Source: Nitrososphaeria archaeon (GTDB taxonomy: Archaea; Thermoproteota; Nitrososphaeria; JACIWG01). From it: a stretch of DNA of 64,000 nucleotides. This document shows, one piece after another, positions 53,682-64,000 of the stretch (the first letter of the stretch is position 1; each line of letters begins with the position of its first letter). The notes beneath the pieces were generated by a model. That model saw only the letters and a program-made list of their open reading frames with translations, was not told where the DNA came from and did no database searches. The stretch covers positions 1,664 through 65,663 of the forward strand of contig JAOAKB010000004.1 of the NCBI GenBank assembly GCA_026413865.1. The letters run 5' to 3'. The translations under genes and the position numbers were made by a program.

Positions 53682-54182
53682 TTGACAACTTCTGCAACAA
53701 GTTTAGATAAAAGATTAATTTTAGTGGATAAGACAATAGCTGTTCATGGAAACAGAAGAGATGCACTACTGGAAATTCTCCATACAGCACATAATGTGTA
53801 CGGATTTCTTGACAAGAAAATACTTTTGCATATTTCGGAAAAATTGAGGATTCCTCCTAGTCAAGTTTATGGAGTTGCAACCTTCTATAACTATTTTAAG
53901 CTGAAGAAGCCTGGTTCTCATTCGGTAACTTTTTGCCTTGGAACTGCATGCTATGTTAAAGGGGTTGAAGAAATACTTTCAGCATTAGAAAAAGAATTTA
54001 ATGTTAAAAGAGGAGAAACGTCCTCTGATGGGAAACTTTCTCTATTTGTTACACGATGTGTTGGAGCCTGTGCTATGGCTCCAAATGTTATAGTTGACGA
54101 TGAAATGATAGGTAAGGCTACAAAGGAGGTAGTCTTAGAGAGAATAAGAAAAATTTTGGAGAGTGAAAGGGTTGAAGCCTGA
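53682..54182 (+). CDS. hoxE: NuoE/HoxE-like [2Fe-2S] diaphorase subunit
   Basis: Thioredoxin-like 2Fe-2S pattern: FCLGTACYVKG ... RCVGACAMAP. Confidence 0.8.
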   Translation: MTTSATSLDKRLILVDKTIAVHGNRRDALLEILHTAHNVYGFLDKKILLHISEKLRIPPSQVYGVATFYNYFKLKKPGSHSVTFCLGTACYVKGVEEILSALEKEFNVKRGETSSDGKLSLFVTRCVGACAMAPNVIVDDEMIGKATKEVVLERIRKILESERVEA

Positions 54183-55824
54183 AGAAATTCAGAAGATTGC
54201 AGAAACAGAACATGACCTTAGAATGTCATATAAGTATCGTATTAATGTGTGTTGTTCAAGCGGATGCCTTCCTTTTGGAGCTCAAAAGCTTTTGAAAGCT
54301 TTTGAGGACACCATAAAAGAGTTGGGTCTGGAAAGGGTCTGTAAGGTTGCAAGGACAGGTTGTGTGGGAACATGTTCTGTTGCTCCAGTGGTTCTAATTG
54401 ATCCTGGTAATCATCTTTATCAGAATGTTAAGCCTGAGGATGCAAAAAAGATAGTTCAAGAACACATTATTAATGGACAAGTTTTAGAAGAATACCTTTA
54501 CAAAAATGAAGCATATTTTAGCAAACAGTATAGGCTTATATTAAGGAATGCTGGAAAAATTGACCCTTTAAGAATAGAAGATTATATTGCAGTTGGAGGA
54601 TATTCTGCTCTTGCAAAGGCCTTAACACAAATGACACCAGAGCAAATAATATATGAGATAAGTTTAAGTGGTCTAAGAGGGCGTGGTGGTGCAGGATTTT
54701 CTACAGGACAAAAATGGAATTTTGTCGCAAAATCTACTGCAAAACCAAAGTATATTGTAGCAAACCTAGATGAAGGAGATCCTGGAGTATTTGCAAACCG
54801 TACACTTGCGGAGGCAGACCCACATGCAATAATCGAGGGAATGACAATTGCAGCATATGCTGTTGGAGCAGAAAAAGGATTCATTTATATAAGGGCAGAG
54901 TACCCGCTTGCAATCCAAACTTTAAAGAAGGCAATAGAGCAAGCTAAATCATATGGTCTTCTTGGAAACAATATTCTTGGGTCAACATTAAATTTTGACA
55001 TAGAACTAAGACTTGGAGCAGGAGCGTTTGTTGCAGGAGAAGAGACTGCTATACTTTCTTCGATAGAGGGTCTTAGGGCTACACCTAGGCCTAGGCCACC
55101 ATATCCTGCTGTTTCAGGACTTTGGGGTAAGCCTACATTAATAAATAATGTTGAAACTTTGGCTAATGTTCCATTAATTATATTAAATGGTGGAACCTGG
55201 TTTTCTAAGTTAGGTACACCAAAGTGTACTGGAACAAAATGTTTTTCATTAACGGGTAAGGTAAAGAATCCTGGTCTTATAGAAGTGCCTATGGGTATAA
55301 CGTTAAAGGAAATCGTTTACGAAATTGGTGGAGGGGTGCCGGATGGTAAAAAGTTTAAGGCAGTTCTTGTAGGAGGGCCTTCTGGAGGATGCCTTCCTGA
55401 AAGTATGCTTTCACTGCCAATAGACTATGAATCGCTTACTCAAGCGGGAGCAATTATGGGGTCAGGGGGAATTGTTGTAATAGACGATGAATCATGTATT
55501 GTTGATACAGCACGATTCTTCATAGATTTTTGTATGGATGAATCATGTGGAAAATGTATACCATGCCGTGCTGGACTACCTAAGGTTAGAGAAATTTTAG
55601 ACAGGATTATGTTAGGTGAAGGAAAAGTAGAAGATCTTAAAGTTTTGGAGGAACTCTGCTATCTTATTAAAGATGCAAGCTTATGCGGTCTAGGCCAGAC
55701 AGCACCAAACCCTGTACTAACAACTTTAAACTATTTCAAACAAGAGTATCTTGCACATATTGTAGAAAAAAGTTGTCCAGCCAAAAAATGTATTCTTAAA
55801 AAAGTGGAGGTTGTGAAAGAATGA
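54163..55824 (+). CDS. hoxF: NuoF/HoxF-like NAD(P)H-binding FMN/[4Fe-4S] diaphorase subunit with an N-terminal 2Fe-2S domain
   Basis: GLRGRGGAGFSTGQKW is the FMN site. ESCGKCIPCR is the N3 cluster. The N-terminal region has CCSSGC...GCVGTCSVAP. Confidence 0.85.
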   Translation: MKGLKPEEIQKIAETEHDLRMSYKYRINVCCSSGCLPFGAQKLLKAFEDTIKELGLERVCKVARTGCVGTCSVAPVVLIDPGNHLYQNVKPEDAKKIVQEHIINGQVLEEYLYKNEAYFSKQYRLILRNAGKIDPLRIEDYIAVGGYSALAKALTQMTPEQIIYEISLSGLRGRGGAGFSTGQKWNFVAKSTAKPKYIVANLDEGDPGVFANRTLAEADPHAIIEGMTIAAYAVGAEKGFIYIRAEYPLAIQTLKKAIEQAKSYGLLGNNILGSTLNFDIELRLGAGAFVAGEETAILSSIEGLRATPRPRPPYPAVSGLWGKPTLINNVETLANVPLIILNGGTWFSKLGTPKCTGTKCFSLTGKVKNPGLIEVPMGITLKEIVYEIGGGVPDGKKFKAVLVGGPSGGCLPESMLSLPIDYESLTQAGAIMGSGGIVVIDDESCIVDTARFFIDFCMDESCGKCIPCRAGLPKVREILDRIMLGEGKVEDLKVLEELCYLIKDASLCGLGQTAPNPVLTTLNYFKQEYLAHIVEKSCPAKKCILKKVEVVKE

Positions 55825-56525
55825 GTGAGAGAATTGTTAAGCTTATAATAGATGGTAAAGAAATTTTTGCAAAACCAACAGACACAATATTAAAGGCGGC
55901 TATAGATAATGGAATACAGATTCCAACATTATGCTACCTTGAAGGTCTTACACCACATGGAGGGTGCAGACTTTGTGTTGTCGAAGTAAAAGGCAACCCT
56001 AAACTTATGACTTCATGCACGACACCAGTGAGCAATAATATGGAGATAATAACAAACTCGCCAAAACTTATAAAATATCGCAAACAGATAATAGAACTCT
56101 TATTAGCTGAAAGAATACACACGTGTTCAGTATGTATTGCAAATGGAAGTTGTGAACTCCAAGAATTAGCATCAAAATTTGGAGTAGACCATACAAATGT
56201 TTCAAGAAACTGGGAACGTTTTGAACTTGACATGTCACATGAACGCTTTGTCCTAGACCATAATAGATGCATACTATGTACAAGATGCATTAGAGTATGT
56301 GATGAAATAGAAGGTGTTCATACTCTTGACATAAAAAGGAGGGGAAAAGATTCGATGATTATAGTGGACTTAGATGAACCATGGTCAGCATCATACTCAT
56401 GTACATCATGTGGAAAATGTTCAGCTGTATGCCCAGTTGGAGCAATATATGTTAAGGGAAAACCTTTATCGGAGACCAAGAGAAAGGAACTTCCCAAATT
56501 TATTACCGAAAGAAGGAGGAGATGA
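55821..56525 (+). CDS. hoxU: NuoG-N-terminal/HoxU-like Fe-S subunit
   Basis: [2Fe-2S] CRLCVVEV...SC, then HTCSVCIANGSCELQ, CILCTRCIRVC, CTSCGKCSAVCP. Confidence 0.85.
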   Translation: MSERIVKLIIDGKEIFAKPTDTILKAAIDNGIQIPTLCYLEGLTPHGGCRLCVVEVKGNPKLMTSCTTPVSNNMEIITNSPKLIKYRKQIIELLLAERIHTCSVCIANGSCELQELASKFGVDHTNVSRNWERFELDMSHERFVLDHNRCILCTRCIRVCDEIEGVHTLDIKRRGKDSMIIVDLDEPWSASYSCTSCGKCSAVCPVGAIYVKGKPLSETKRKELPKFITERRRR

Positions 56526-57064
56526 TTGTGTTGGCTAAAGTTAAGGTTGCAACTGTATGGTTAAGTGGATGCTCAGGATGCCACATGTCATTCCTAGACC
56601 AAGACGAGAAGCTTATAGAATTGTCTAAAAGGATAGAGCTGGTCTATAGTCCAATAGCTGATGTGAAAGAGTTTCCGGAAAACGTTGACATAACATTTAT
56701 TGAAGGCGCTGTAGCAAACGAGGAACAATTTCATCTATTAAAGCTAATAAGAGAACGTACAAAACTTCTAATAGCATTAGGAGACTGTGCTGTAACAGGA
56801 AACGTTGTCACACTAAGGAACTGTTTCCAAGATAGTGTGAAGGAAGTTCTTGAAAAGGCCTATATTGAAACTGTAACATACAATCCACAATATCCAGTGC
56901 AGGTTCCTAAGCTTTTAGAAAAAGCATATTCAATTAACGAGGTTGTTAAGGTAGACTTTTACATACCCGGATGCCCTCCTTCAGCAGACCTAATCAACTA
57001 TGTTATAACAGAATTCTTAGAGGGAAGAGTACCCTCTATAGAGGAGAAATTTAAATATGGTTAG
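56522..57064 (+). CDS. hoxY: [NiFe]-hydrogenase small subunit, short HoxY type
   Basis: WLSGCSGCHMSF (proximal cluster), GDCA, PGCPP. At 180 aa it would carry only the proximal cluster. Confidence 0.85.
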   Translation: MIVLAKVKVATVWLSGCSGCHMSFLDQDEKLIELSKRIELVYSPIADVKEFPENVDITFIEGAVANEEQFHLLKLIRERTKLLIALGDCAVTGNVVTLRNCFQDSVKEVLEKAYIETVTYNPQYPVQVPKLLEKAYSINEVVKVDFYIPGCPPSADLINYVITEFLEGRVPSIEEKFKYG

Positions 57065-57074
57065 GTGAAATTTT

Positions 57075-58511
57075 ATGAAAGAAATTGTGATAAATCCTGT
57101 AACAAGAATTGAGGGACATGCAAAGGTTACAATATTCTTAGATGAAAACGATGAGGTTAAGGAAGCACGTTTCCAGGTAACAGACTTTAGAGGGTTTGAA
57201 AAATTCTGTGAAGGAAGACCCTTTTATGAAATGCCATCTATAACATCAAGAGTTTGTGGAATATGTCCAGTAAGTCACTTACTTGCTTCAGTAAAAGCAT
57301 GTGACCAGATAGCTTCTGTAATAATTCCTGAGACAGCTGAAAGGTTAAGAAGACTAATGCACTTTGGCCAAATAATACAGTCTCATGCACTAAGCTTCTT
57401 CCATCTATCATCTCCAGACCTACTGCTTGGAATGGACTATAGTCCAATGAAAAGAAACATATTTGAGCTAATAGAAAAATATCCTGAAATAGCAAAAAGA
57501 GGAATATTTCTAAGAAGATTTGGGCAACAGATTATAGAAAGATTAAGCGGTAAAAGAATACATTCAGGAGAATGGATAATGCCCGGCGGAGTTAAAACAC
57601 CACTTTCAAAAGAAAAGCGTGACATGATTCTTAGAGACACACCTGAGGCTTTAAAAATGATACAAGTAACATTAGAAGAATTCAAGAAGAGTATTGAAAG
57701 ATTTAGAGATGAAGTTGAGAGTTTTGGAAACTTTCCAACATACTATCTTGGCCTCGTATCAGAAAAAGGGCTTCTAGAACATTATGATGGAAAGATAAGA
57801 ATTGTTGGACCAGATGGTGAAATTGTTGCAGACAATCTTGAACCAACAAAGTACTTCGAATATATTGGTGAAGCAGTTGAACCATGGTCTTACATGAAGT
57901 TCCCATACTATAAGCAAAAAGGATATCCTGCTGGAGTATACCGTGTAGGCCCATTGGCAAGATTGAATATTGTCCAAAAATGTGGAACACCAATGGCTGA
58001 CAAAGAATTAAGAGAGTATAGAAAACTTGGCAAAAACGGTATAGTTGAAAGCACATTCTTATACCATTATGCTAGGCTAATAGAAATATTATATAGTGTA
58101 GAAAAAGTTAAAGAGATGCTTGAAGACCCCAAAATTTTAGACGAAAATGTTCAAGCAAAATCATATGCTTCAAGAGAAGAAGGTGTAGGTGTTGCTGAAG
58201 CACCAAGAGGGACACTAATACATCATTATAAAGTTGACAGAAATGGTAAAATAATATGGACAAACCTAATAATCGCTACAGAAAACAATAATCTAGCATA
58301 TAACATGGCGATAACACAGGTAGCAAAAAAATATGTTAATGGAAAAAGATTAGATGAGGGAATGCTTAACAGGGTTGAGGCTGTTATAAGAGCATTTGAC
58401 CCATGCCTAAGCTGTGCCACACACACATGGGGAAGGATGCCGCTTTCAATACATCTATACGATTCTAGAGGAAAAGAAGTGGACCGACTTATACAAGAAA
58501 ACCTACCTTAA
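57075..58511 (+). CDS. hoxH: [NiFe]-hydrogenase large subunit (group 3, HoxH-like)
   Basis: N-terminal RVCGICPVSH (RxCGxCxxxH). C-terminal DPCLSCATH followed by a 28-aa tail that would be removed by a maturation protease. Confidence 0.9.
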   Translation: MKEIVINPVTRIEGHAKVTIFLDENDEVKEARFQVTDFRGFEKFCEGRPFYEMPSITSRVCGICPVSHLLASVKACDQIASVIIPETAERLRRLMHFGQIIQSHALSFFHLSSPDLLLGMDYSPMKRNIFELIEKYPEIAKRGIFLRRFGQQIIERLSGKRIHSGEWIMPGGVKTPLSKEKRDMILRDTPEALKMIQVTLEEFKKSIERFRDEVESFGNFPTYYLGLVSEKGLLEHYDGKIRIVGPDGEIVADNLEPTKYFEYIGEAVEPWSYMKFPYYKQKGYPAGVYRVGPLARLNIVQKCGTPMADKELREYRKLGKNGIVESTFLYHYARLIEILYSVEKVKEMLEDPKILDENVQAKSYASREEGVGVAEAPRGTLIHHYKVDRNGKIIWTNLIIATENNNLAYNMAITQVAKKYVNGKRLDEGMLNRVEAVIRAFDPCLSCATHTWGRMPLSIHLYDSRGKEVDRLIQENLP

Positions 58512-60164
58512 AACGTACTTGAAAAGAGATTCGAACGCAGAAAGTATGCTGTTGCCATGAACATTCTTATTTATTAGGAAAAGGCAATGTGAACCGCCAG
58601 TTGAAAGTATATCTAGAGCGTGTCTAATCATCTTATACGCCTGCTCGAAACTTGTTAAAATAATAATATCACTTATATTATCGAAAACAATACAGCCACC
58701 GACTCTAGTAATAGTATTAAAAAAGCCTAGAATAGACGATATATCTCCTGCCGGAACAAAACTTATTCTTTCATTCAACTGCACAACCTTTGAATGTGTT
58801 GTTGAAAGGAAAACAAATTTTAAATTTTCAAACATATTAAGTGCATTTTCTAAAACACTACCCTTTCGTGTAAAAACATAAACATTTTCACCATTACATA
58901 AACATTCTTTAACAAAATCTAAAACTCTAGGTAAATAATCTTCTGAAGAAAATTCTAGAAGAAAATTTGATATTTTAAAAACATCATGTGTAATACCAAT
59001 ATTTTTAGAGAAAACTTCAAAGTCGTTTAAACTAAAACCTTTAGGCAAAAACATCTGCTTTAAATCTTTAGAAAACATTTCAAAAAGCCTTTCAGACCTA
59101 ACATAATTTTCATGCCTTTTAAGCACTTGAACAAGCGCTGCACCAAGCACACTATAATTTTTGTTAATAAATTCGACAAGAAAACTTCCAAAACTTTTAT
59201 CTAATTCACCAGATTCAAGTAGTGTGAGAGTAAGGTCTATGAATTTATTAACCGTATCCACTTCAATATCACCTCTAATATTTAATAGAATTCTAGAATC
59301 CTTACTATCAAAGGACAAAACGTCACCTAAACCTCTTTCATTCAAATAAGATAATATTCTAAAATATCTTATACCAAGCTGCTCAGGAAAACTTGACATA
59401 CTTTCAATAAAAGCCTTTAAAAGCTTAGAAAAGTCTTCAGCCATTTTAGAATAGCCTAAAGGAACCAGGGTAATAATATCCTTTGAAGGAATGTTTAACA
59501 CATGATATATTACTAAGAATGTTGCAAGATAAAAGAAGCCACCTAAAGGTGGAAAGTTGGGGTTCACCTGAAGCAGGATAAAGTTTGTGACCGTAACACC
59601 GATAGCCTGAAATATTATAAAAGAGACTAAAATGTAGAGTAAACTTTTTCTAAGAGACTTTGATGCAGCCTTAAGCCATAAAAAGATGAGGACAAAAAGT
59701 ATTGAAGCCATATAAATTGGTGTAAAAAAAATTATTACAAAAGTTGCGTGAGGAGCAATTATTGTATGATAACTCCATCCAAAAGCACCTTCAACCATTT
59801 CATATTCGACAAAAAATGTGTAAATGATGCTTCCAAATACACTTGGAGCAAGGCATAATAGATTCAATAATCTTGTCCTCCAAATGTTAAGAAATGTTAA
59901 GAAAAAGAAGCCTAAAATAAATGGATGAACTACACCTATTACCTTAAATATTTGAATAGAAAATTCGTATGTTGCCGCAGTCCTATGAATAAATACAAGC
60001 ACATCCCATAACACGATAGAAAAACCAAAAAGTGCAAGAGAAACACTAACAAAGTTTACTTTCAACCTGTAGAGAGTTAATATTGTTGCAAAAACTATTG
60101 CCAAGGCTCCAAGAATATATTCTATGAAGAGAAAAATATAGTTAAAAGAGAATGGTTCAAGCAT
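58503..60164 (-). CDS. Seven-TM membrane protein with a cytoplasmic linker and a C-terminal DUF835-like (P-loop-less KaiC-like) domain
   Basis: About 7 hydrophobic helices in aa 8-225. The C-terminal ~140 aa (NVYVFTRKGS...VVQLNERISFVPAGDISSILGFF...GGCIVFDNISDIIILTSFEQAYKMIRHALDIL...HCLFLINKN) follows the DUF835 pattern and has no Walker A. The start overlaps the upstream gene by 8 nt. Confidence 0.6.
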   Translation of the reverse strand: MLEPFSFNYIFLFIEYILGALAIVFATILTLYRLKVNFVSVSLALFGFSIVLWDVLVFIHRTAATYEFSIQIFKVIGVVHPFILGFFFLTFLNIWRTRLLNLLCLAPSVFGSIIYTFFVEYEMVEGAFGWSYHTIIAPHATFVIIFFTPIYMASILFVLIFLWLKAASKSLRKSLLYILVSFIIFQAIGVTVTNFILLQVNPNFPPLGGFFYLATFLVIYHVLNIPSKDIITLVPLGYSKMAEDFSKLLKAFIESMSSFPEQLGIRYFRILSYLNERGLGDVLSFDSKDSRILLNIRGDIEVDTVNKFIDLTLTLLESGELDKSFGSFLVEFINKNYSVLGAALVQVLKRHENYVRSERLFEMFSKDLKQMFLPKGFSLNDFEVFSKNIGITHDVFKISNFLLEFSSEDYLPRVLDFVKECLCNGENVYVFTRKGSVLENALNMFENLKFVFLSTTHSKVVQLNERISFVPAGDISSILGFFNTITRVGGCIVFDNISDIIILTSFEQAYKMIRHALDILSTGGSHCLFLINKNVHGNSILSAFESLFKYVLR

Positions 60165-61782
60165 TTTTACTACAGTCCCATAAATCTTCTATAATTTGAA
60201 ACTTTTCTGGAGGGACAATCTTTGGAGGCTTGTATTGTCCTAAAGGAACATTATTCCTAGCCTGTTTAATAGCATATCTTGTGAAAGTGCCTCTAGAAAG
60301 AAACTCAACCTTTATAGCCTCTGAAGGACTACTTATCTTAAAGTCCCTAACATAGTCTCTAAATTCAGGATGTATATTATAGAGGACATCAAATATCATC
60401 CTCTCAGCTTCACCTTCACTTAAAGCCCACTCCTTTTCAAAAAGAACATAAAGCTTTTCACGTGGATGCAATATTTTGGATACAACCCATCTGTCCGATG
60501 CCTTAAAGTTTGCTTCAACAAGAGCCCTAGCCATAATGTCTTCTGTAACCCTAAAATAATCGTATATTGAAAGTAGTGTCTGAACCCTCCCTTCAAAAGA
60601 GAAAACAGGCATACCATCATAGAAGTCTATAACCCTAAACATATCACCAATTCTATATCTTACAAGCATAGTATAAAATGGAGTGCCAACAAGCTCATAA
60701 GATTCACCCTTCTTCAACTCATAAAGCTTCTTAACCTCACCTCGGCCATTAATAAATTCAAAATATAGGCTTCTAAGGTTTGGCATGAAATCCATTTTCC
60801 TATCAGGCCGCCCGAACATAGCACTACCAAATTCTGTAGAACCGTACGAGTTAAGAGGCTGTACACCAAACTCTCTTTCAAAAAAGTCTGCATATAATCT
60901 TGCATCAGTACTTCCGATCAAAACACCCTTCAAAGGCATAATTTCTTTTAAATCCTTTTGACCATGACCACCTAACTTTGTTAGAAAAAGTTTTAAAAGT
61001 ATAAGAAACCTTTTACTCCAGTTGGATGACATCTTATAGGACTCCTTCAAAAAATATTCTTGATCCGAAAAATATTTGCAAATCATGTAGAGCAGGGCAC
61101 CACTACCACCAGCCATATGAATTTTATGCCCATTATCAATCATCCTCAATGCAATAGAAAATTTTTTACCCATATCCCTAATTTTGTCAGCGACTTCAAT
61201 AGGTGGGACAAAATTTAGGAAATTGCTCCAAAACTTTAGAGCCCAACCACTTATGTATGGCGGTGGTGCAATAAGGTTTAAGGCGTTTGCATTATTATCT
61301 AAAACGTTTTCCCCCCATTCTCTAGAAAATGCTATAAGAACAAGAGCCATACTACTTGAAATAAATGTCTCATAAAAATTTTTTCCATGAACAAAGTATT
61401 TTGGCTTACCTGTTGTTCCAGTCGTTTTAACACAAAAATATGGTTCATCAGGCAGAAAGCCTTCAACAAGACCACGAATATTTTGCTCAAATAGTCTCAT
61501 ATAATAATCATGCAATGTTTCTCCTTCAGCTACAGGAACAGCTTTTTCACATTGTTCTAAAACTTCTGTAACCTTATCAAGCATAGGGTAATCATTATAT
61601 TCTGTTATAGGCAAATCGTCAATACTTCTCACACTCCTATTTCCACAAACTTTCTTTGCAGTAGAAGTATTAAGCCAATGGCTCAAATGCTTTTCCAAAA
61701 GATAATTGTTGTATTCAAGCTGTTGCTCAAAAGTTTTTCTATAAAAACCACAATATTTTTCCCAAAGCTGAAGATTATCCAT
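60157..61782 (-). CDS. GH3-family (ANL-like) adenylate-forming acyl-acid amido synthetase homolog
   Basis: KTTGTTGKPKY (GH3 motif 1), NSYGSTEFG (motif 2, YxSxE), YRIGDMFRVIDFYDGMPVFSFEGR (motif 3, YRxGD). The N-terminal EQQLEYNNYLLEKHL...ITEYNDY also resembles the GH3 N-terminus. 541 aa. Confidence 0.65.
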   Translation of the reverse strand: MDNLQLWEKYCGFYRKTFEQQLEYNNYLLEKHLSHWLNTSTAKKVCGNRSVRSIDDLPITEYNDYPMLDKVTEVLEQCEKAVPVAEGETLHDYYMRLFEQNIRGLVEGFLPDEPYFCVKTTGTTGKPKYFVHGKNFYETFISSSMALVLIAFSREWGENVLDNNANALNLIAPPPYISGWALKFWSNFLNFVPPIEVADKIRDMGKKFSIALRMIDNGHKIHMAGGSGALLYMICKYFSDQEYFLKESYKMSSNWSKRFLILLKLFLTKLGGHGQKDLKEIMPLKGVLIGSTDARLYADFFEREFGVQPLNSYGSTEFGSAMFGRPDRKMDFMPNLRSLYFEFINGRGEVKKLYELKKGESYELVGTPFYTMLVRYRIGDMFRVIDFYDGMPVFSFEGRVQTLLSIYDYFRVTEDIMARALVEANFKASDRWVVSKILHPREKLYVLFEKEWALSEGEAERMIFDVLYNIHPEFRDYVRDFKISSPSEAIKVEFLSRGTFTRYAIKQARNNVPLGQYKPPKIVPPEKFQIIEDLWDCSKNA

Positions 61783-62483
61783 CAGAATACCTCTGGATAT
61801 GGAGTTATTACAATACCTTCATTAGGAACTATAGAATATTGATAGAACTTCATTTCATGCGCTACACCCCTCATTTTTAAAACTGCAAGCCGCCTCCTTA
61901 ACTCGCCTTTAACAGGCAAAAGCTCCAGCTTTATTATCCCGTCTACAACAAATTCTTCAACACCAGAACCAAGACTATCAACACCCCAAGGTGTTTCAGA
62001 TATGACAATACTTGTACAACCAAGCTTCCTAAGAAGCCTATGTATTATCGAAAGCACAACCCTTATTTCATCCTTCCTTTCTAGTGACATAGTCAAAGCA
62101 GTCAAAGAGTCTATCACAAGCCTTTGGGGAGAAAAAGAAAGGGCCTTTTCAAAGATCATGTCTAACATGCTTTCTAAACCAGACCTTTCTACAGCCATAA
62201 AATCAAGAATTTTAACCTTATCCTCTTCATCAAGTCTATCAAAATCCCATCCCATAGTCCTAGTAAACTGTTTTAAAGTCTGAACATTTTCATTAAATAT
62301 TATAAGCATACCTTTTTCAGAAAACTTTACAGCACCATTATACAGAAACTGTAAGGCTGTTAAAGTCTTTCCAGTTCCAGGACCACCAGCAATTAAGGTT
62401 ATTGAACCCCTCGGAAGACCGCCATTCAATATTCGATCCAATTCAGCTATTCCAGTAGAAGCCCTATCAATTTCAAAACTCAT
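61782..62483 (-). CDS. Single-domain KaiC/RecA-like ATPase
   Basis: STGIAELDRILNGGLPRGSITLIAGGPGTGKT (Walker A), RLVIDSL (Walker B), and C-terminal LKMRG..H. 233 aa. Confidence 0.8.
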   Translation of the reverse strand: MSFEIDRASTGIAELDRILNGGLPRGSITLIAGGPGTGKTLTALQFLYNGAVKFSEKGMLIIFNENVQTLKQFTRTMGWDFDRLDEEDKVKILDFMAVERSGLESMLDMIFEKALSFSPQRLVIDSLTALTMSLERKDEIRVVLSIIHRLLRKLGCTSIVISETPWGVDSLGSGVEEFVVDGIIKLELLPVKGELRRRLAVLKMRGVAHEMKFYQYSIVPNEGIVITPYPEVF

Positions 62484-63136
62484 TTTTCACCAACCTCAAT
62501 TATAAACTTTCCATAATCCTTAACAAGAGACTCAGAACGTCTAACATTAAACTTTTTATCATAAACCTTTTCAAGAAAACCTGCAATTATGCCTCTAATC
62601 AGATTCTCTGAAAGATTATTCTTAAAAGGTACACTTGAAACTGTAAGAAGACCATACCCTTTTTCATAATCCATTTTGGACAAGGATATTTCACCCCATC
62701 CATTCGACCTAAAAAGATTACAGAAACTTGAAATAAGATTTTCTTTTTCATCTGAAAACCTTTTCAAAAGCTCGCCATAAGTTCTTCCAATAGACAAGCC
62801 AATGTTAAAAACTATCAAAACACCACCAACACCAAAAGTTCCAACAATAACATTTAAAATATTATCCCAGCACACAGCAGGCACCATAATAGGTGAGCCT
62901 CCAGCAAACTCTTTTGTCGAAGGAAAAAACCTTTCAATAACATCATCACATAGTTCAACACTATAACCTTTTATTATTCCATTCGACTCCATCCTCTTAA
63001 TCCGCCTTGCAACAGTCCTATCTGAAACACCAACAACTTTAGCAATTTCATTACATTGGACTCTTGCATTTTCTTTAAGAAGCTTTAAAATTTTTAGGTC
63101 AAGGTCATCAATGTTACCTTTAACCAAACTAATCAA
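62480..63136 (-). CDS. AsnC/Lrp-type HTH regulator fused to a V4R-like ligand-binding domain
   Basis: The HTH is LDLKILKLLKENARVQCNEIAKVVGVSDRTVARRIKRMESNGIIKGY. The C-terminal NGWGEISLSKMDYEKGYGLLTVSSVPF...LIRGIIAGFLEKVY...GKFIIEV resembles V4R. TTG start. Confidence 0.65.
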   Translation of the reverse strand: MISLVKGNIDDLDLKILKLLKENARVQCNEIAKVVGVSDRTVARRIKRMESNGIIKGYSVELCDDVIERFFPSTKEFAGGSPIMVPAVCWDNILNVIVGTFGVGGVLIVFNIGLSIGRTYGELLKRFSDEKENLISSFCNLFRSNGWGEISLSKMDYEKGYGLLTVSSVPFKNNLSENLIRGIIAGFLEKVYDKKFNVRRSESLVKDYGKFIIEVGEK

Positions 63137-63173
63137 CTAGTATGACAGAAATCGTTATAAAAATATTATCTAA

Positions 63174-63219
63174 GACAAAAATTGTAGGACAAAAACATTT
63201 TTAGACAAAAAAAGACAAA
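63174..63219 (-). repeat. Four direct GACAAA(AA) repeats (TTTTTGTC on the coding strand) upstream of the HTH-V4R/KaiC/GH3 operon
   Basis: GACAAAAA occurs at 63174, 63188 and 63204, and GACAAA at 63214 (spacings 14, 16 and 10 nt). On the minus strand a TATA-like atatttttataa at 63153-63164 follows, and then the TTG start at 63136. Confidence 0.5.
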
Positions 63220-63234
63220 TTAAACCTAATGAAC

Positions 63235-63702
63235 CTACTCATTCTGGTACCTACCCCTATAGCCTTCCAAAGCCTTCCTTTCACATCTAACAAGCACAAG
63301 CTGAGCAAATCTTGCACCCTTTTCAATAACAATAGAGTTTTCAACCTTTAATAAAACCTTCGAAAAACCACTATATCCAGAATCCCAGAGGGCAGAACCA
63401 ACATAGGCGCCCATCCTAACCAGAGAAGACCTTGGAAAACATATTCCTACAGCATCAAGTGGTATAGAAATCTTTTCCCTAACTTGGACAACATAAACAC
63501 CCTTATCAAGAAAATATTGTCCTCTTTCATTACAGGAAACCTCAACATATTCTGGAAGAGTTACAACATCCCTTAATATGGCACCGGAACCCTTAATAGT
63601 GAAAATTTTTTCAACTGTCAAATCAACACCATTAACCTGAACTTGATTTTCACTAATTCCTTCAATAAACCTTGCAACATCATTACCAGCCAAAACAGAC
63701 AT
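63235..63702 (-). CDS. dut: dCTP deaminase/dUTPase-superfamily protein (short archaeal dUTPase-like)
   Basis: PRSSLVRMGAYVGSALWDSGYSG and C-terminal YRGRYQNE. I trimmed the start to the ATG at 63702 (MSVLAGND), because the ORF-track extension to 63855 runs into the tRNA-Tyr gene. Confidence 0.75.
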   Translation of the reverse strand: MSVLAGNDVARFIEGISENQVQVNGVDLTVEKIFTIKGSGAILRDVVTLPEYVEVSCNERGQYFLDKGVYVVQVREKISIPLDAVGICFPRSSLVRMGAYVGSALWDSGYSGFSKVLLKVENSIVIEKGARFAQLVLVRCERKALEGYRGRYQNE

Positions 63703-63760
63703 ACCCAAACCATAAAAAAGACAAGAATATAAAATTAAAAAAACGAGAAATAAGAAAACG

Positions 63761-63774
63761 ATAAAAATATATAT
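63761..63774 (+). promoter_or_regulatory. TATA-like element (ATAAAAATATATAT) 28-41 nt upstream of tRNA-Tyr
   Basis: Call rests on sequence and spacing only. Confidence 0.35.
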
Positions 63775-63801
63775 GGAAAAATTAGTCCATAATCTATCGA
63801 C

Positions 63802-63919
63802 CCCGGGGTAGCTCAGCCTGGCAGAGCTTCCGGCTGTAGAAGTTTGCCTTGGCAAACTCGTTCAGCCTGTCAGGCTTACAGAAACCGGAGTGTCGGGTGT
63901 TCAAATCACCCCCCCGGGA
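63802..63919 (+). tRNA. tRNA-Tyr (anticodon GUA) with a 44-nt intron after position 37
   Basis: Acceptor CCCGGGG/CCCCGGG, D arm GCUC-AGCCUGGCA-GAGC, anticodon stem UCCGG...CCGGA, anticodon GUA at 63836-63838, T arm GGGUG-UUCAAAU-CACCC, discriminator A. The two exons sum to about 74 nt. Confidence 0.85.
63840..63883 (+). other. Archaeal tRNA intron (canonical 37/38 position)
   Basis: The intron 3' segment UUACAG can pair with the exon anticodon-loop CUGUAG, leaving short bulges at both junctions in a bulge-helix-bulge-like arrangement. There are two internal hairpins: GTTTGCC-TT-GGCAAAC and AGCCTG-TC-AGGCT. Boundaries are ambiguous by 1-2 nt. Confidence 0.6.
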
Positions 63920-64000
63920 TCATAACTTAGAGAAAGCGAATTTTAGCTGAAAATAATAAATATTATCATTTAATTAGCCCAATAAAACAAAGAGGGAATA

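Follow-up and report, generated by a model that had tools for sequence, protein, structure and literature searches.

A GH3-like enzyme gene paired with a seven-helix sensor gene in several archaeal lineages, and its KaiC-type operon in a Nitrososphaeria archaeon

In plants, GH3 enzymes join acyl acids with amino acids. What, then, does a GH3-like enzyme do among the signalling genes of an archaeon? The question is raised by a stretch of 64,000 nucleotides from an uncultured Nitrososphaeria archaeon of a hot spring (assembly GCA_026413865.1, contig JAOAKB010000004.1, positions 1,664 to 65,663), which was analysed as a whole and is called the window here. Four minus-strand genes in it are chained by overlapping stop and start codons, and encode a transcription regulator (REG), a KaiC-like ATPase, a GH3-like enzyme and a membrane protein with seven predicted transmembrane (7-TM) helices. 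A first-pass annotation of the same DNA had tied the GH3 enzyme to the KaiC-like ATPase and to the V4R-like domain of the regulator. We found that it is tied to the 7-TM sensor instead. The four genes are:

62480-63136, minus strand: REG, transcription regulator, 218 aa, TTG start
61782-62483, minus strand: KaiC-like ATPase, 233 aa
60157-61782, minus strand: GH3-like enzyme, 541 aa
58503-60164, minus strand: membrane protein, the 7-TM sensor, 553 aa

The neighbourhood of the GH3 gene was investigated by a profile scan of one genome per prokaryotic species. This gave 72 loci, 61 of them close relatives, in metagenome-assembled genomes (MAGs) labelled Nitrososphaeria, Bathyarchaeia, Hadarchaeota, Thermoplasmata, Brockarchaeota and Hydrothermarchaeota and in two bins labelled bacterial. 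A homologous 7-TM gene directly adjoined the GH3 gene in 53 of the 61 loci. Mostly it lay directly downstream (39 of 45 same-strand cases had a gap of at most 5 nt, and 14 overlapped); in one Bathyarchaeia clade it was divergent and upstream. Among the eight loci without an adjacent 7-TM gene, six were cut by contig ends, one had the gene 2.9 kb away and one had a split gene. The reverse search gave the same picture, since all four 7-TM homologs found in other metagenomes with the 7-TM profile alone had a GH3 gene directly upstream. Clustering of all open reading frames (ORFs) of the 72 loci, in which an exporter, an acyltransferase and genes of substrate supply were sought, found no third gene conserved across lineages. 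The other neighbours were lineage-specific, namely REC proteins, PAS histidine kinases, two small unknown proteins in Bathyarchaeia, and UbiA in Hadarchaeota. The full order of REG, KaiC, GH3 and 7-TM genes recurred in 16 other loci from two lineages, so the synteny that the first-pass annotation had looked for does exist. The invariant partner of the GH3 gene, however, is the 7-TM input module and not KaiC or V4R, and the GH3/7-TM cassette was seen in at least six archaeal lineages.

The cytoplasmic outputs of the sensors were more diverse. Word-indexed protein searches with the membrane protein and with the profile of its N-terminal module gave 10 and 14 matches. In a census that therefore rests on the 53 genome loci and not on the whole protein database, 36 partners ended in a DUF835-like domain, 15 in a histidine kinase, and two were split genes. 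The kinase outputs consisted of HisKA and HATPase_c, once of PAS-HisKA_2-HATPase, and response regulators, PAS kinases and one REC-GerE regulator were frequent neighbours. Homology between the output classes covered the 7-TM bundle and about 120 cytoplasmic residues and then ended. In a midpoint-rooted neighbour-joining tree of GH3, the kinase versions formed one Bathyarchaeia clade and one separate case, which suggests at least two output swaps. A KaiC gene lay directly upstream in 19 of 35 DUF835-type loci as against 0 of 14 histidine-kinase loci (Fisher p=2.5e-4, uncorrected for phylogeny). Because KaiC co-occurs exclusively with the DUF835-type outputs, the idea that the DUF835 tail docks on the KaiC-like ATPase gains support. 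This natural exchange between DUF835/KaiC and histidine kinase shows that both transmitter types are interchangeable behind one input, and it is useful evidence that DUF835/KaiC modules really transmit signals.

Some loci are worth describing in their own right. Within the kinase-output Bathyarchaeia clade (L009-L047, e.g., L013:8404-9551), the GH3 gene faces a conserved, convergently oriented unit of three genes; this unit encodes a membrane protein of ~130 aa, a protein of ~100 aa (neither with a Pfam match) and a stand-alone REC protein, and a TrmB-like regulator gene comes next. The two bins labelled bacterial, of Dehalococcoidales (L023) and Neomarinimicrobiota (L041), hold GH3/7TM-DUF835 cassettes, by transfer or by mis-binning. 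After the cassette of the former come two genes of a typically bacterial kind, one for a PAS-HisKA_3 kinase and one for a NarL-type REC-GerE regulator. Two Thermoplasmata loci carry two paralogous 7TM-DUF835 genes by one GH3 gene, both downstream in L049 and one on each side in L051, with an 819-aa PAS histidine kinase coming next; this layout suggests receptor duplication around one enzyme.

Is the 541-aa protein really a GH3 enzyme? It matched the Pfam model GH3_M (PF23571) at 42 bits (1e-10; cut-off 23.6), while GH3_C (16 bits) and AMP-binding stayed under their cut-offs and the GH3 N-domain (PF03321) was not matched in the Pfam scan. When the family profile (A1) was searched against PDB, only plant GH3 enzymes were retrieved (best 4epm, 2.4e-13, covering residues 309-531), and no PaaK appeared at E<=0.01. 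The AlphaFold2 (AF2) model (pLDDT, the predicted local confidence, 89.5) adopts the two-domain GH3 fold. Its 18 best Foldseek matches were plant GH3 enzymes (AtGH3.15, GH3.5, GH3.12, JAR1; 1.5e-19 to 1.5e-16), and PaaK-type ligases came second (about 1e-16 to 1e-15). The motifs TTGTTGKPK (120-128), YGSTE (313-317), YRIGD (376-380) and GQYKPPK (515-521), including the C-terminal lysine, could be aligned to GH3.12. Across 28 sequences, residues K119, T120, G122-G125, K128, Y313/E317, R375/Y376/D380 and G515/Q516/K518 were invariant or at least 90% conserved. The protein is cytosolic, and ~100 aa at its N-terminus are specific to the clade. Since the GH3 motifs are intact, the enzyme should be catalytically active, and we predict a GH3-type ATP-dependent acyl-acid amido synthetase of the ANL superfamily.

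The second-tier fold matches bear on another explanation, namely that the protein is a ligase of acyl-CoA or PaaK type with a housekeeping role, whose gene lies beside signalling genes by chance. The closeness of the PaaK structures speaks for it, as does the JGI annotation of one fragment (P0072), which reads 'PaaK-like'. Pfam, the PDB profile search and Foldseek nevertheless all point to GH3 and away from the PaaK/F390 clade: the profiles match GH3 only, and GH3_M stands above its cut-off where AMP-binding stands below. Further evidence against it is the adjacency to the sensor gene, which persists in six or more archaeal lineages although every other neighbour varies, and the reciprocal search, which agreed in all four cases. 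A chance association is thus extremely improbable, being effectively refuted by the synteny.

The archaeal core family is small. An exhaustive profile search, clustered at 50%, gave ~16 representatives that scored <1e-100, and the canonical GH3 tier was clearly apart from them, with matches only from about residue 105 onward. The longer proteins in this search belonged to that canonical sister tier. One of them (P0169) is fused to an N-terminal phospholipid-methyltransferase-like (PEMT) membrane domain, and in another (P0189) a caspase domain (Peptidase_C14) lies within the N-terminal part of GH3.

What does the partner of the enzyme look like? The membrane protein, which is 100% identical to a Nitrososphaeria MAG protein, was modelled with a pLDDT of 85.6 as seven TM helices, a hairpin, a cytoplasmic helical domain (240-357 in the model) and a C-terminal alpha/beta domain. 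Its parts are:

59460..60164, minus strand: 7-TM bundle, sensor input part 1 (residues 1-235)
59100..59459, minus strand: cytoplasmic juxtamembrane domain, sensor input part 2 (about residues 236-355), mostly helical
58503..58982, minus strand: sensor transmitter, DUF835-like 'iKaiC' (residues ~395-553 and the stop codon)

The helices of the AF2 model span residues 4-34, 38-61, 66-95, 99-117, 138-165, 169-200 and 208-223, and a beta-hairpin (120-135) lies between TM4 and TM5. Across 46 homologs, the mean number of Lys and Arg was 10.2 in the inner loops versus 2.5 in the outer loops. The positive-inside rule and the modelled helices agree on a predicted topology with the N-terminus outside and the C-terminus inside. 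Within the bundle, every strongly conserved residue is found at an outer helix end or in an outer loop (H60-R61, the G129-W130-S-Y132 hairpin, N194 and P202..F-P-P-x-G208-G209). From this model we infer an outward-facing conserved pocket, a putative ligand site, in which R61, the single conserved outer positive charge, would together with H60 suit the binding of a carboxylate. The 7-TM and linker module had no significant sequence relative in PDB. Homology to G protein-coupled receptors was considered and set aside, because the Foldseek matches (TM-score <=0.47) reflected generic seven-helix similarity.

In an alignment of 53 sequences, conservation extended to about residue 355 and was followed by divergence according to output class. 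The juxtamembrane domain, with conserved L263, G264, G278, L279, L313 and H351, is common to the DUF835-type and histidine-kinase-type partners, and no Pfam or PDB homolog of it was found. That it could be a docking site for GH3 is speculation. The transmitter tail scored 25.6 bits against the DUF835 model PF05763, under the cut-off of 33.1, but orthologs 40% identical to the window sensor carry PF05763, and 21 of the 53 partners match it at E<=1e-3. The tail profile (A5) matched FlaH (4yds, 2.6e-5) and KaiC (0.027) in PDB, and Foldseek placed FlaH, PH0284, KaiC and RecA on top (TM-score 0.45-0.57 on target). No GxxxxGK[ST] motif is present in the tail; hhalign puts FLLEFSSE at the position of the KaiC P-loop and D495, the only invariant residue of the tail, on the Walker B Asp. 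The PDB profile match and the modelled fold, together with the domain matches of the partners, indicate that the tail is a P-loop-less, DUF835-like domain of the KaiC/RecA fold, as the first-pass annotation had supposed. DUF835 is classed as an inactivated KaiC domain in PMC5847659.

The KaiC-like protein of the operon appears to be the active counterpart of this tail. It consists of a single RecA-superfamily domain (PF06745, 5e-61, residues 9-228) with Walker A (GGPGTGKT, 33-40), Walker B (RLVIDS, with D125) and the conserved Glu65 all intact, and G33, G36, K39, E65, D125 and S126 were invariant among 14 orthologs. The NCBIfam models of KaiC type matched at 1e-44 to 1e-28, all under their equivalog cut-offs. 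A clock KaiC proper can be ruled out, because the protein has one domain of 233 aa and not CI plus CII, and its score against circ_KaiC (TIGR02655) is 108 bits versus a cut-off of 546.

REG starts with an AsnC-type winged helix-turn-helix (HTH) domain at residues ~9-56 (Pfam HTH_24 5e-16, HTH_AsnC 1.6e-14). Its matches in PDB to Lrp/AsnC proteins lay mainly over the HTH region (about residues 6-92), and the RAM (AsnC_trans_reg) domain was not found in it; thus, REG is no classical Lrp/AsnC protein. The C-terminal domain (residues ~85-218) is divergent and V4R-like. Taken alone, the C-terminal 150 residues matched no Pfam model significantly, V4R (PF02830) reaching E=0.18 (12.4 bits), but a profile of 19 REG sequences (A3) matched the V4R protein MJ1460 (2osd) at 1.8e-4 over residues 132-215. 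Moreover, two paralogs in Brockarchaeota-type loci (L044:5693-6511 and L045:12338-13150) pass PF02830 (~1e-11) and match the REG C-terminus in BLAST (5e-8). These paralogs are a second V4R protein, encoded two genes downstream of the sensor, which bears a C-terminal Cys pair and has an unrelated N-terminal region. In the alignment, the V4R-like domain of REG was without this Cys pair, and identity between its two clades was 24-31%. The four domain calls of the first-pass annotation (HTH_AsnC, KaiC, GH3 and DUF835-like) therefore all hold, as do the motifs it had listed (GGPGTGKT, RLVIDSL, TTGTTGKPKY, YGSTE and YRIGD), with the reservation that the V4R part is divergent and lacks the Cys pair.

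These features bear on the circuit that the same annotation had proposed, in which the V4R domain of REG would read an acyl-amino-acid ligand made or inactivated by GH3 in the cytoplasm, and the 7-TM/DUF835 protein would separately dock on or poison a KaiC hexamer. Such a circuit would fit the predicted co-transcription of the four genes, their syntenic order in the 16 loci, the V4R-like C-terminus of REG and the second V4R protein of the Brockarchaeota-type loci. However, in about two thirds of the loci the GH3 and 7-TM genes occur where V4R and KaiC genes are both absent, and because all 15 kinase-type loci are among them, reading of the GH3 product by a V4R regulator cannot be the general logic. 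The weak conservation of the V4R-like domain and its missing Cys motif also stand in contrast to the strongly conserved enzyme. We regard this circuit as quite unlikely.

How tightly are the four genes bound to each other? The three junctions, read from the sequence, are exactly as first described. REG and the KaiC-like gene share ATGA (4-nt overlap, 62483-62480), the stop of the KaiC-like gene and the start of GH3 share one base in TGATG (61784-61780), and GH3 and the membrane protein gene overlap by 8 nt in ATGCTTGA (60164-60157). In the orthologous loci, the gap between GH3 and 7-TM genes was -8 nt in L001-L007 and -4 nt in L008, and that between KaiC and GH3 genes was -1 to +1 nt. The same overlaps thus recur in orthologs at 40-88% identity and are therefore no chance feature of one genome. 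The first-pass annotation had extended the cluster over 58503-63234; its lower end stands, but the genes end at 63136, and 63137-63234 is non-coding and holds the putative promoter, in a spacer of 98 nt that separates REG from an upstream dUTPase gene. Two kinds of elements were recognised in this spacer:

63155..63167, minus strand: putative archaeal BRE/TATA element (TFB-recognition element and TATA box) AATATTTTTATAA, about 22-30 nt upstream of both candidate TTG starts of REG (63136 and 63127)
63173-63181, 63187-63195 and 63203-63211, minus strand: three direct repeats TTTTTGTCY, 14-16 nt apart, a short way upstream of the TATA box

The second TTG, at 63127, is an equally possible start of REG. 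In an alignment with the upstream regions of L001-L003, the block TTTTTATAA and its flanks were invariant, and a conserved TATA box was found upstream of REG only. Its distance from the start implies a leaderless or very short-leader transcript. Because the cluster has no other spacer, a single transcript is the natural reading, and the four genes would form one expression unit behind one conserved TATA box, the putative promoter. The proposal of a single expression unit of signalling rather than housekeeping character is supported. TTTTTGTCY has eight matches in the 64-kb window (4.0 expected), three of which fall inside the 39 bp of 63173-63211, and the repeats are partly conserved in L001 and L002. 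They are a candidate operator, possibly for autoregulation by REG. Rfam detected no riboswitch or leader in 58000-64000, the only match being a tRNA. No paralogs of the four operon genes were found elsewhere in the window, and among the PADLOC models of defence systems the GH3-like and membrane proteins had no match, while REG and the KaiC-like protein gave generic HTH and P-loop matches only.

The tRNA, which contains an intron and was missed by ARAGORN, lies at 63802-63919 on the plus strand (118 nt, Rfam RF00005, 47.4 bits, full model) and by eye looks like tRNA-Tyr(GTA). Since the ORF 63235-63855 overlaps it, the dUTPase gene more likely starts at the ATG at 63702. On the other side of the cluster, a five-gene operon of the NAD(P)-linked bidirectional [NiFe]-hydrogenase type (53682-58511, plus strand) runs towards the sensor gene, with which it shares 9 bp where their stop regions meet (58503-58511). 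Its genes encode a 2Fe-2S thioredoxin-like protein, a Nuo51-like FMN subunit, a NuoG-like Fe-S subunit, a small subunit and a large subunit. The same hydrogenase neighbour was found in L001-L004 and L007.

Returning to the opening question, what would the enzyme do for the sensor? Because GH3 tracks the input module through every output change, it most likely acts at the level of the stimulus, that is, on the ligand of the receptor. We therefore propose an enzyme-receptor input cassette in which GH3 makes or removes an amide-conjugate ligand of the receptor, and which feeds KaiC and an HTH regulator here and two-component systems elsewhere; whether this is correct we consider an evenly balanced matter. 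In the version that we prefer, the cytosolic GH3 protein, translationally coupled to the membrane sensor, would act as an ATP-dependent carboxylate-amine ligase and synthesise an amphipathic amide conjugate from an acyl acid and an amino acid or amine, with the carboxylate retained. The conjugate would exit the cytoplasm or enter the membrane and be bound by the outward His/Arg-containing pocket, so that the two genes would be a pair of signal synthase and receptor. The DUF835 tail would bind to the active KaiC-like ATPase of the operon or form a joint assembly with it. The state of this ATPase would control REG, whose gene is translationally coupled to it, and the probable target of REG would be the TTTTTGTCY repeats in front of its own gene. 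Elsewhere among the archaea, this cassette is connected instead to a histidine kinase with response regulators. We infer all of the protein-protein contacts, the substrates of the enzyme and the direction, synthesis or removal, in which it works.

The direction deserves particular attention. The sensor might instead detect an external or membrane-borne carboxylic acid, and the cytosolic GH3 enzyme might conjugate the ligand that had entered the cell, inactivating or trapping it and thereby resetting the pathway. Such removal or adaptation would follow the logic of vectorial acylation or of plant auxin, in the homeostasis of which the role of GH3 enzymes is established. It draws on the same synteny evidence as the synthase version, and the high conservation of the enzyme and of the outward motifs would suit a shared ligand from the environment or from metabolism better than a private signal. 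Plant GH3.5, GH3.6 and GH3.8 are indeed IAA-amido (indole-3-acetic acid-amido) synthetases according to their PDB entry names. On the other hand, the ORF clustering of the loci revealed no uptake system conserved nearby, and tight translational coupling at about 1:1 to a receptor is unusual for an enzyme of bulk detoxification. Removal seems to us rather unlikely, although the sequence data do not separate it from synthesis.

A different role would be in membrane-lipid homeostasis. OlsH, a planctomycete GH3-like enzyme described in 2025, N-acylates ornithine with fatty acids and so forms a lyso-ornithine lipid (PMC12493201), and prokaryotic GH3 homologs can hence no longer be called uncharacterised, as the first-pass annotation had done. 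The archaeal enzyme might likewise make an N-acyl-amino-acid-type lipid, and the 7-TM protein might sense the state of the membrane and regulate the enzyme or be co-regulated with it, as an envelope-stress module. The fusion of the sister-clade protein P0169 to a phospholipid-methyltransferase-like domain agrees with such a role, as does a UbiA prenyltransferase gene that follows the GH3/7-TM pair in three Hadarchaeota loci. However, the pair has no conserved neighbour for an OlsI-like O-acyltransferase or another lipid function, the near-invariant outward polar residues H60, R61 and N194 resemble a ligand site rather than a sensor of the bulk membrane, and the archaeal clade is a small branch separate from canonical GH3. 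A lipid role is unlikely on this evidence.

Several observations weigh against the enzyme-receptor cassette itself, or against parts of it. No exporter or ligand-supply gene is conserved beside the pair, and no GH3-7TM fusion protein occurs among the 150 best matches of the exhaustive profile search, which leaves a physical association of enzyme and sensor conjectural. The enzyme is 37-47% identical across phyla and the receptor 20-26%; strong conservation of the enzyme and near-invariant outer motifs argue for one common ligand and not for species-specific signals of the quorum type. Concerning the transmitter, a neighbouring KaiC gene is missing in roughly half of the DUF835-type loci, and the hhalign comparison of the tail with the KaiC family of the operon is in register but weak (E 0.017, probability 2.6%). 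The V4R-like domain of REG might also bind a ligand of its own. Finally, all loci come from uncultured MAGs.

The furthest extension of the synthase version is that the GH3/7-TM genes are a synthase/receptor pair for a class of archaeal signals not recognised so far, amide conjugates of the acyl-amino-acid type that are extracellular or membrane-borne, used in Nitrososphaeria, Bathyarchaeia, Hadarchaeota, Thermoplasmata and Brockarchaeota with KaiC-type or two-component transmitters. We offer this tentatively, as a possibility on the doubtful side. If it were true, cell-cell or autocrine signalling would be widespread in archaea, and a new system of chemical communication would have come into view. 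To our knowledge, hardly any archaeal membrane sensor has a known ligand, and archaeal signal transduction is poorly understood; nor do we know of any identified inputs to the proposed KaiC-like hub pathways. The substrates of the enzyme would probably reveal the ligand class of this sensor family in many uncultured archaeal lineages.

The cassette can be compared with several known systems. OlsH resembles the archaeal enzyme in being prokaryotic and of GH3 type; it uses ATP and Mg2+ to link a carboxylic acid with an amino acid, and it demonstrates activity of this enzyme type outside plants. In contrast, OlsH works with the O-acyltransferase OlsI in lipid synthesis (PMC12493201), whereas the archaeal GH3 gene has no linked acyltransferase and its partner is a sensor. 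The plant enzymes (JAR1/GH3.11, PBS3/GH3.12 and GH3.5/6/8/15) are the best profile and fold matches and share the P-loop motif, YxxSE, YRxGD, the GQYK lysine and the two-domain ANL architecture. They differ in that identity is only 14-18%, the N-terminal ~100 residues of the archaeal protein are not recognised as a GH3 N-domain, and the archaeal gene lies in an operon with a receptor.

LuxM-LuxN and CqsA-CqsS are bacterial gene pairs of an autoinducer synthase and a membrane sensor kinase. As in the archaeal pair, the gene of a small-molecule enzyme lies beside that of a polytopic receptor with a cytoplasmic transmitter, which in 15 of the loci studied here is a histidine kinase as well. However, the enzyme family and the receptor fold are unrelated, the archaeal partners are highly conserved across phyla, unlike species-specific signals, and release of a product by the archaeal enzyme is hypothetical. 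Closer to the sensor stand the HisKA_7TM (PF16927) proteins (PMC5847659, PMC6944256). Eight of the 53 partner homologs match this model (best 4e-08), and the 7-TM modules are mutually homologous: the window protein lies under the model, with no match at E<=0.1, but in BLAST its 7-TM part aligns with the matching partners at 1e-25 to 1e-8. The GH3-linked subfamily differs by its extra conserved cytoplasmic domain. REG is comparable to the MsvR regulators of methanogens, in which a winged HTH is likewise followed by a V4R-like domain. Its NCBIfam MsvR match is weak and far under the family cut-off (31.6 bits versus 220); moreover, it is without the V4R-typical C-terminal Cys, and its gene is coupled to that of a KaiC-like ATPase.

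Makarova, Galperin and Koonin reportedly proposed in 2017 (mBio 8:e01959-17) that archaeal KaiC-like ATPases serve as signalling hubs together with inactivated KaiC domains (DUF835, MEDS), a classification cited in PMC5847659. The operon agrees with this idea in that a single-domain KaiC-like ATPase is co-encoded with an HTH regulator and with a membrane protein that ends in a P-loop-less DUF835 domain. It differs in having a dedicated GH3 ligase, which tracks the 7-TM input and not KaiC, and in that the same input also occurs on histidine kinases. Our literature searches returned no description of GH3 linked to KaiC, or to a 7-TM/HisKA_7TM sensor, in archaea, with the neighbourhood tables of the 2017 hub paper left unchecked. 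The KaiC/DUF835/HTH part of the operon thus fits the known hub idea, and the new element is the GH3 enzyme-receptor cassette.

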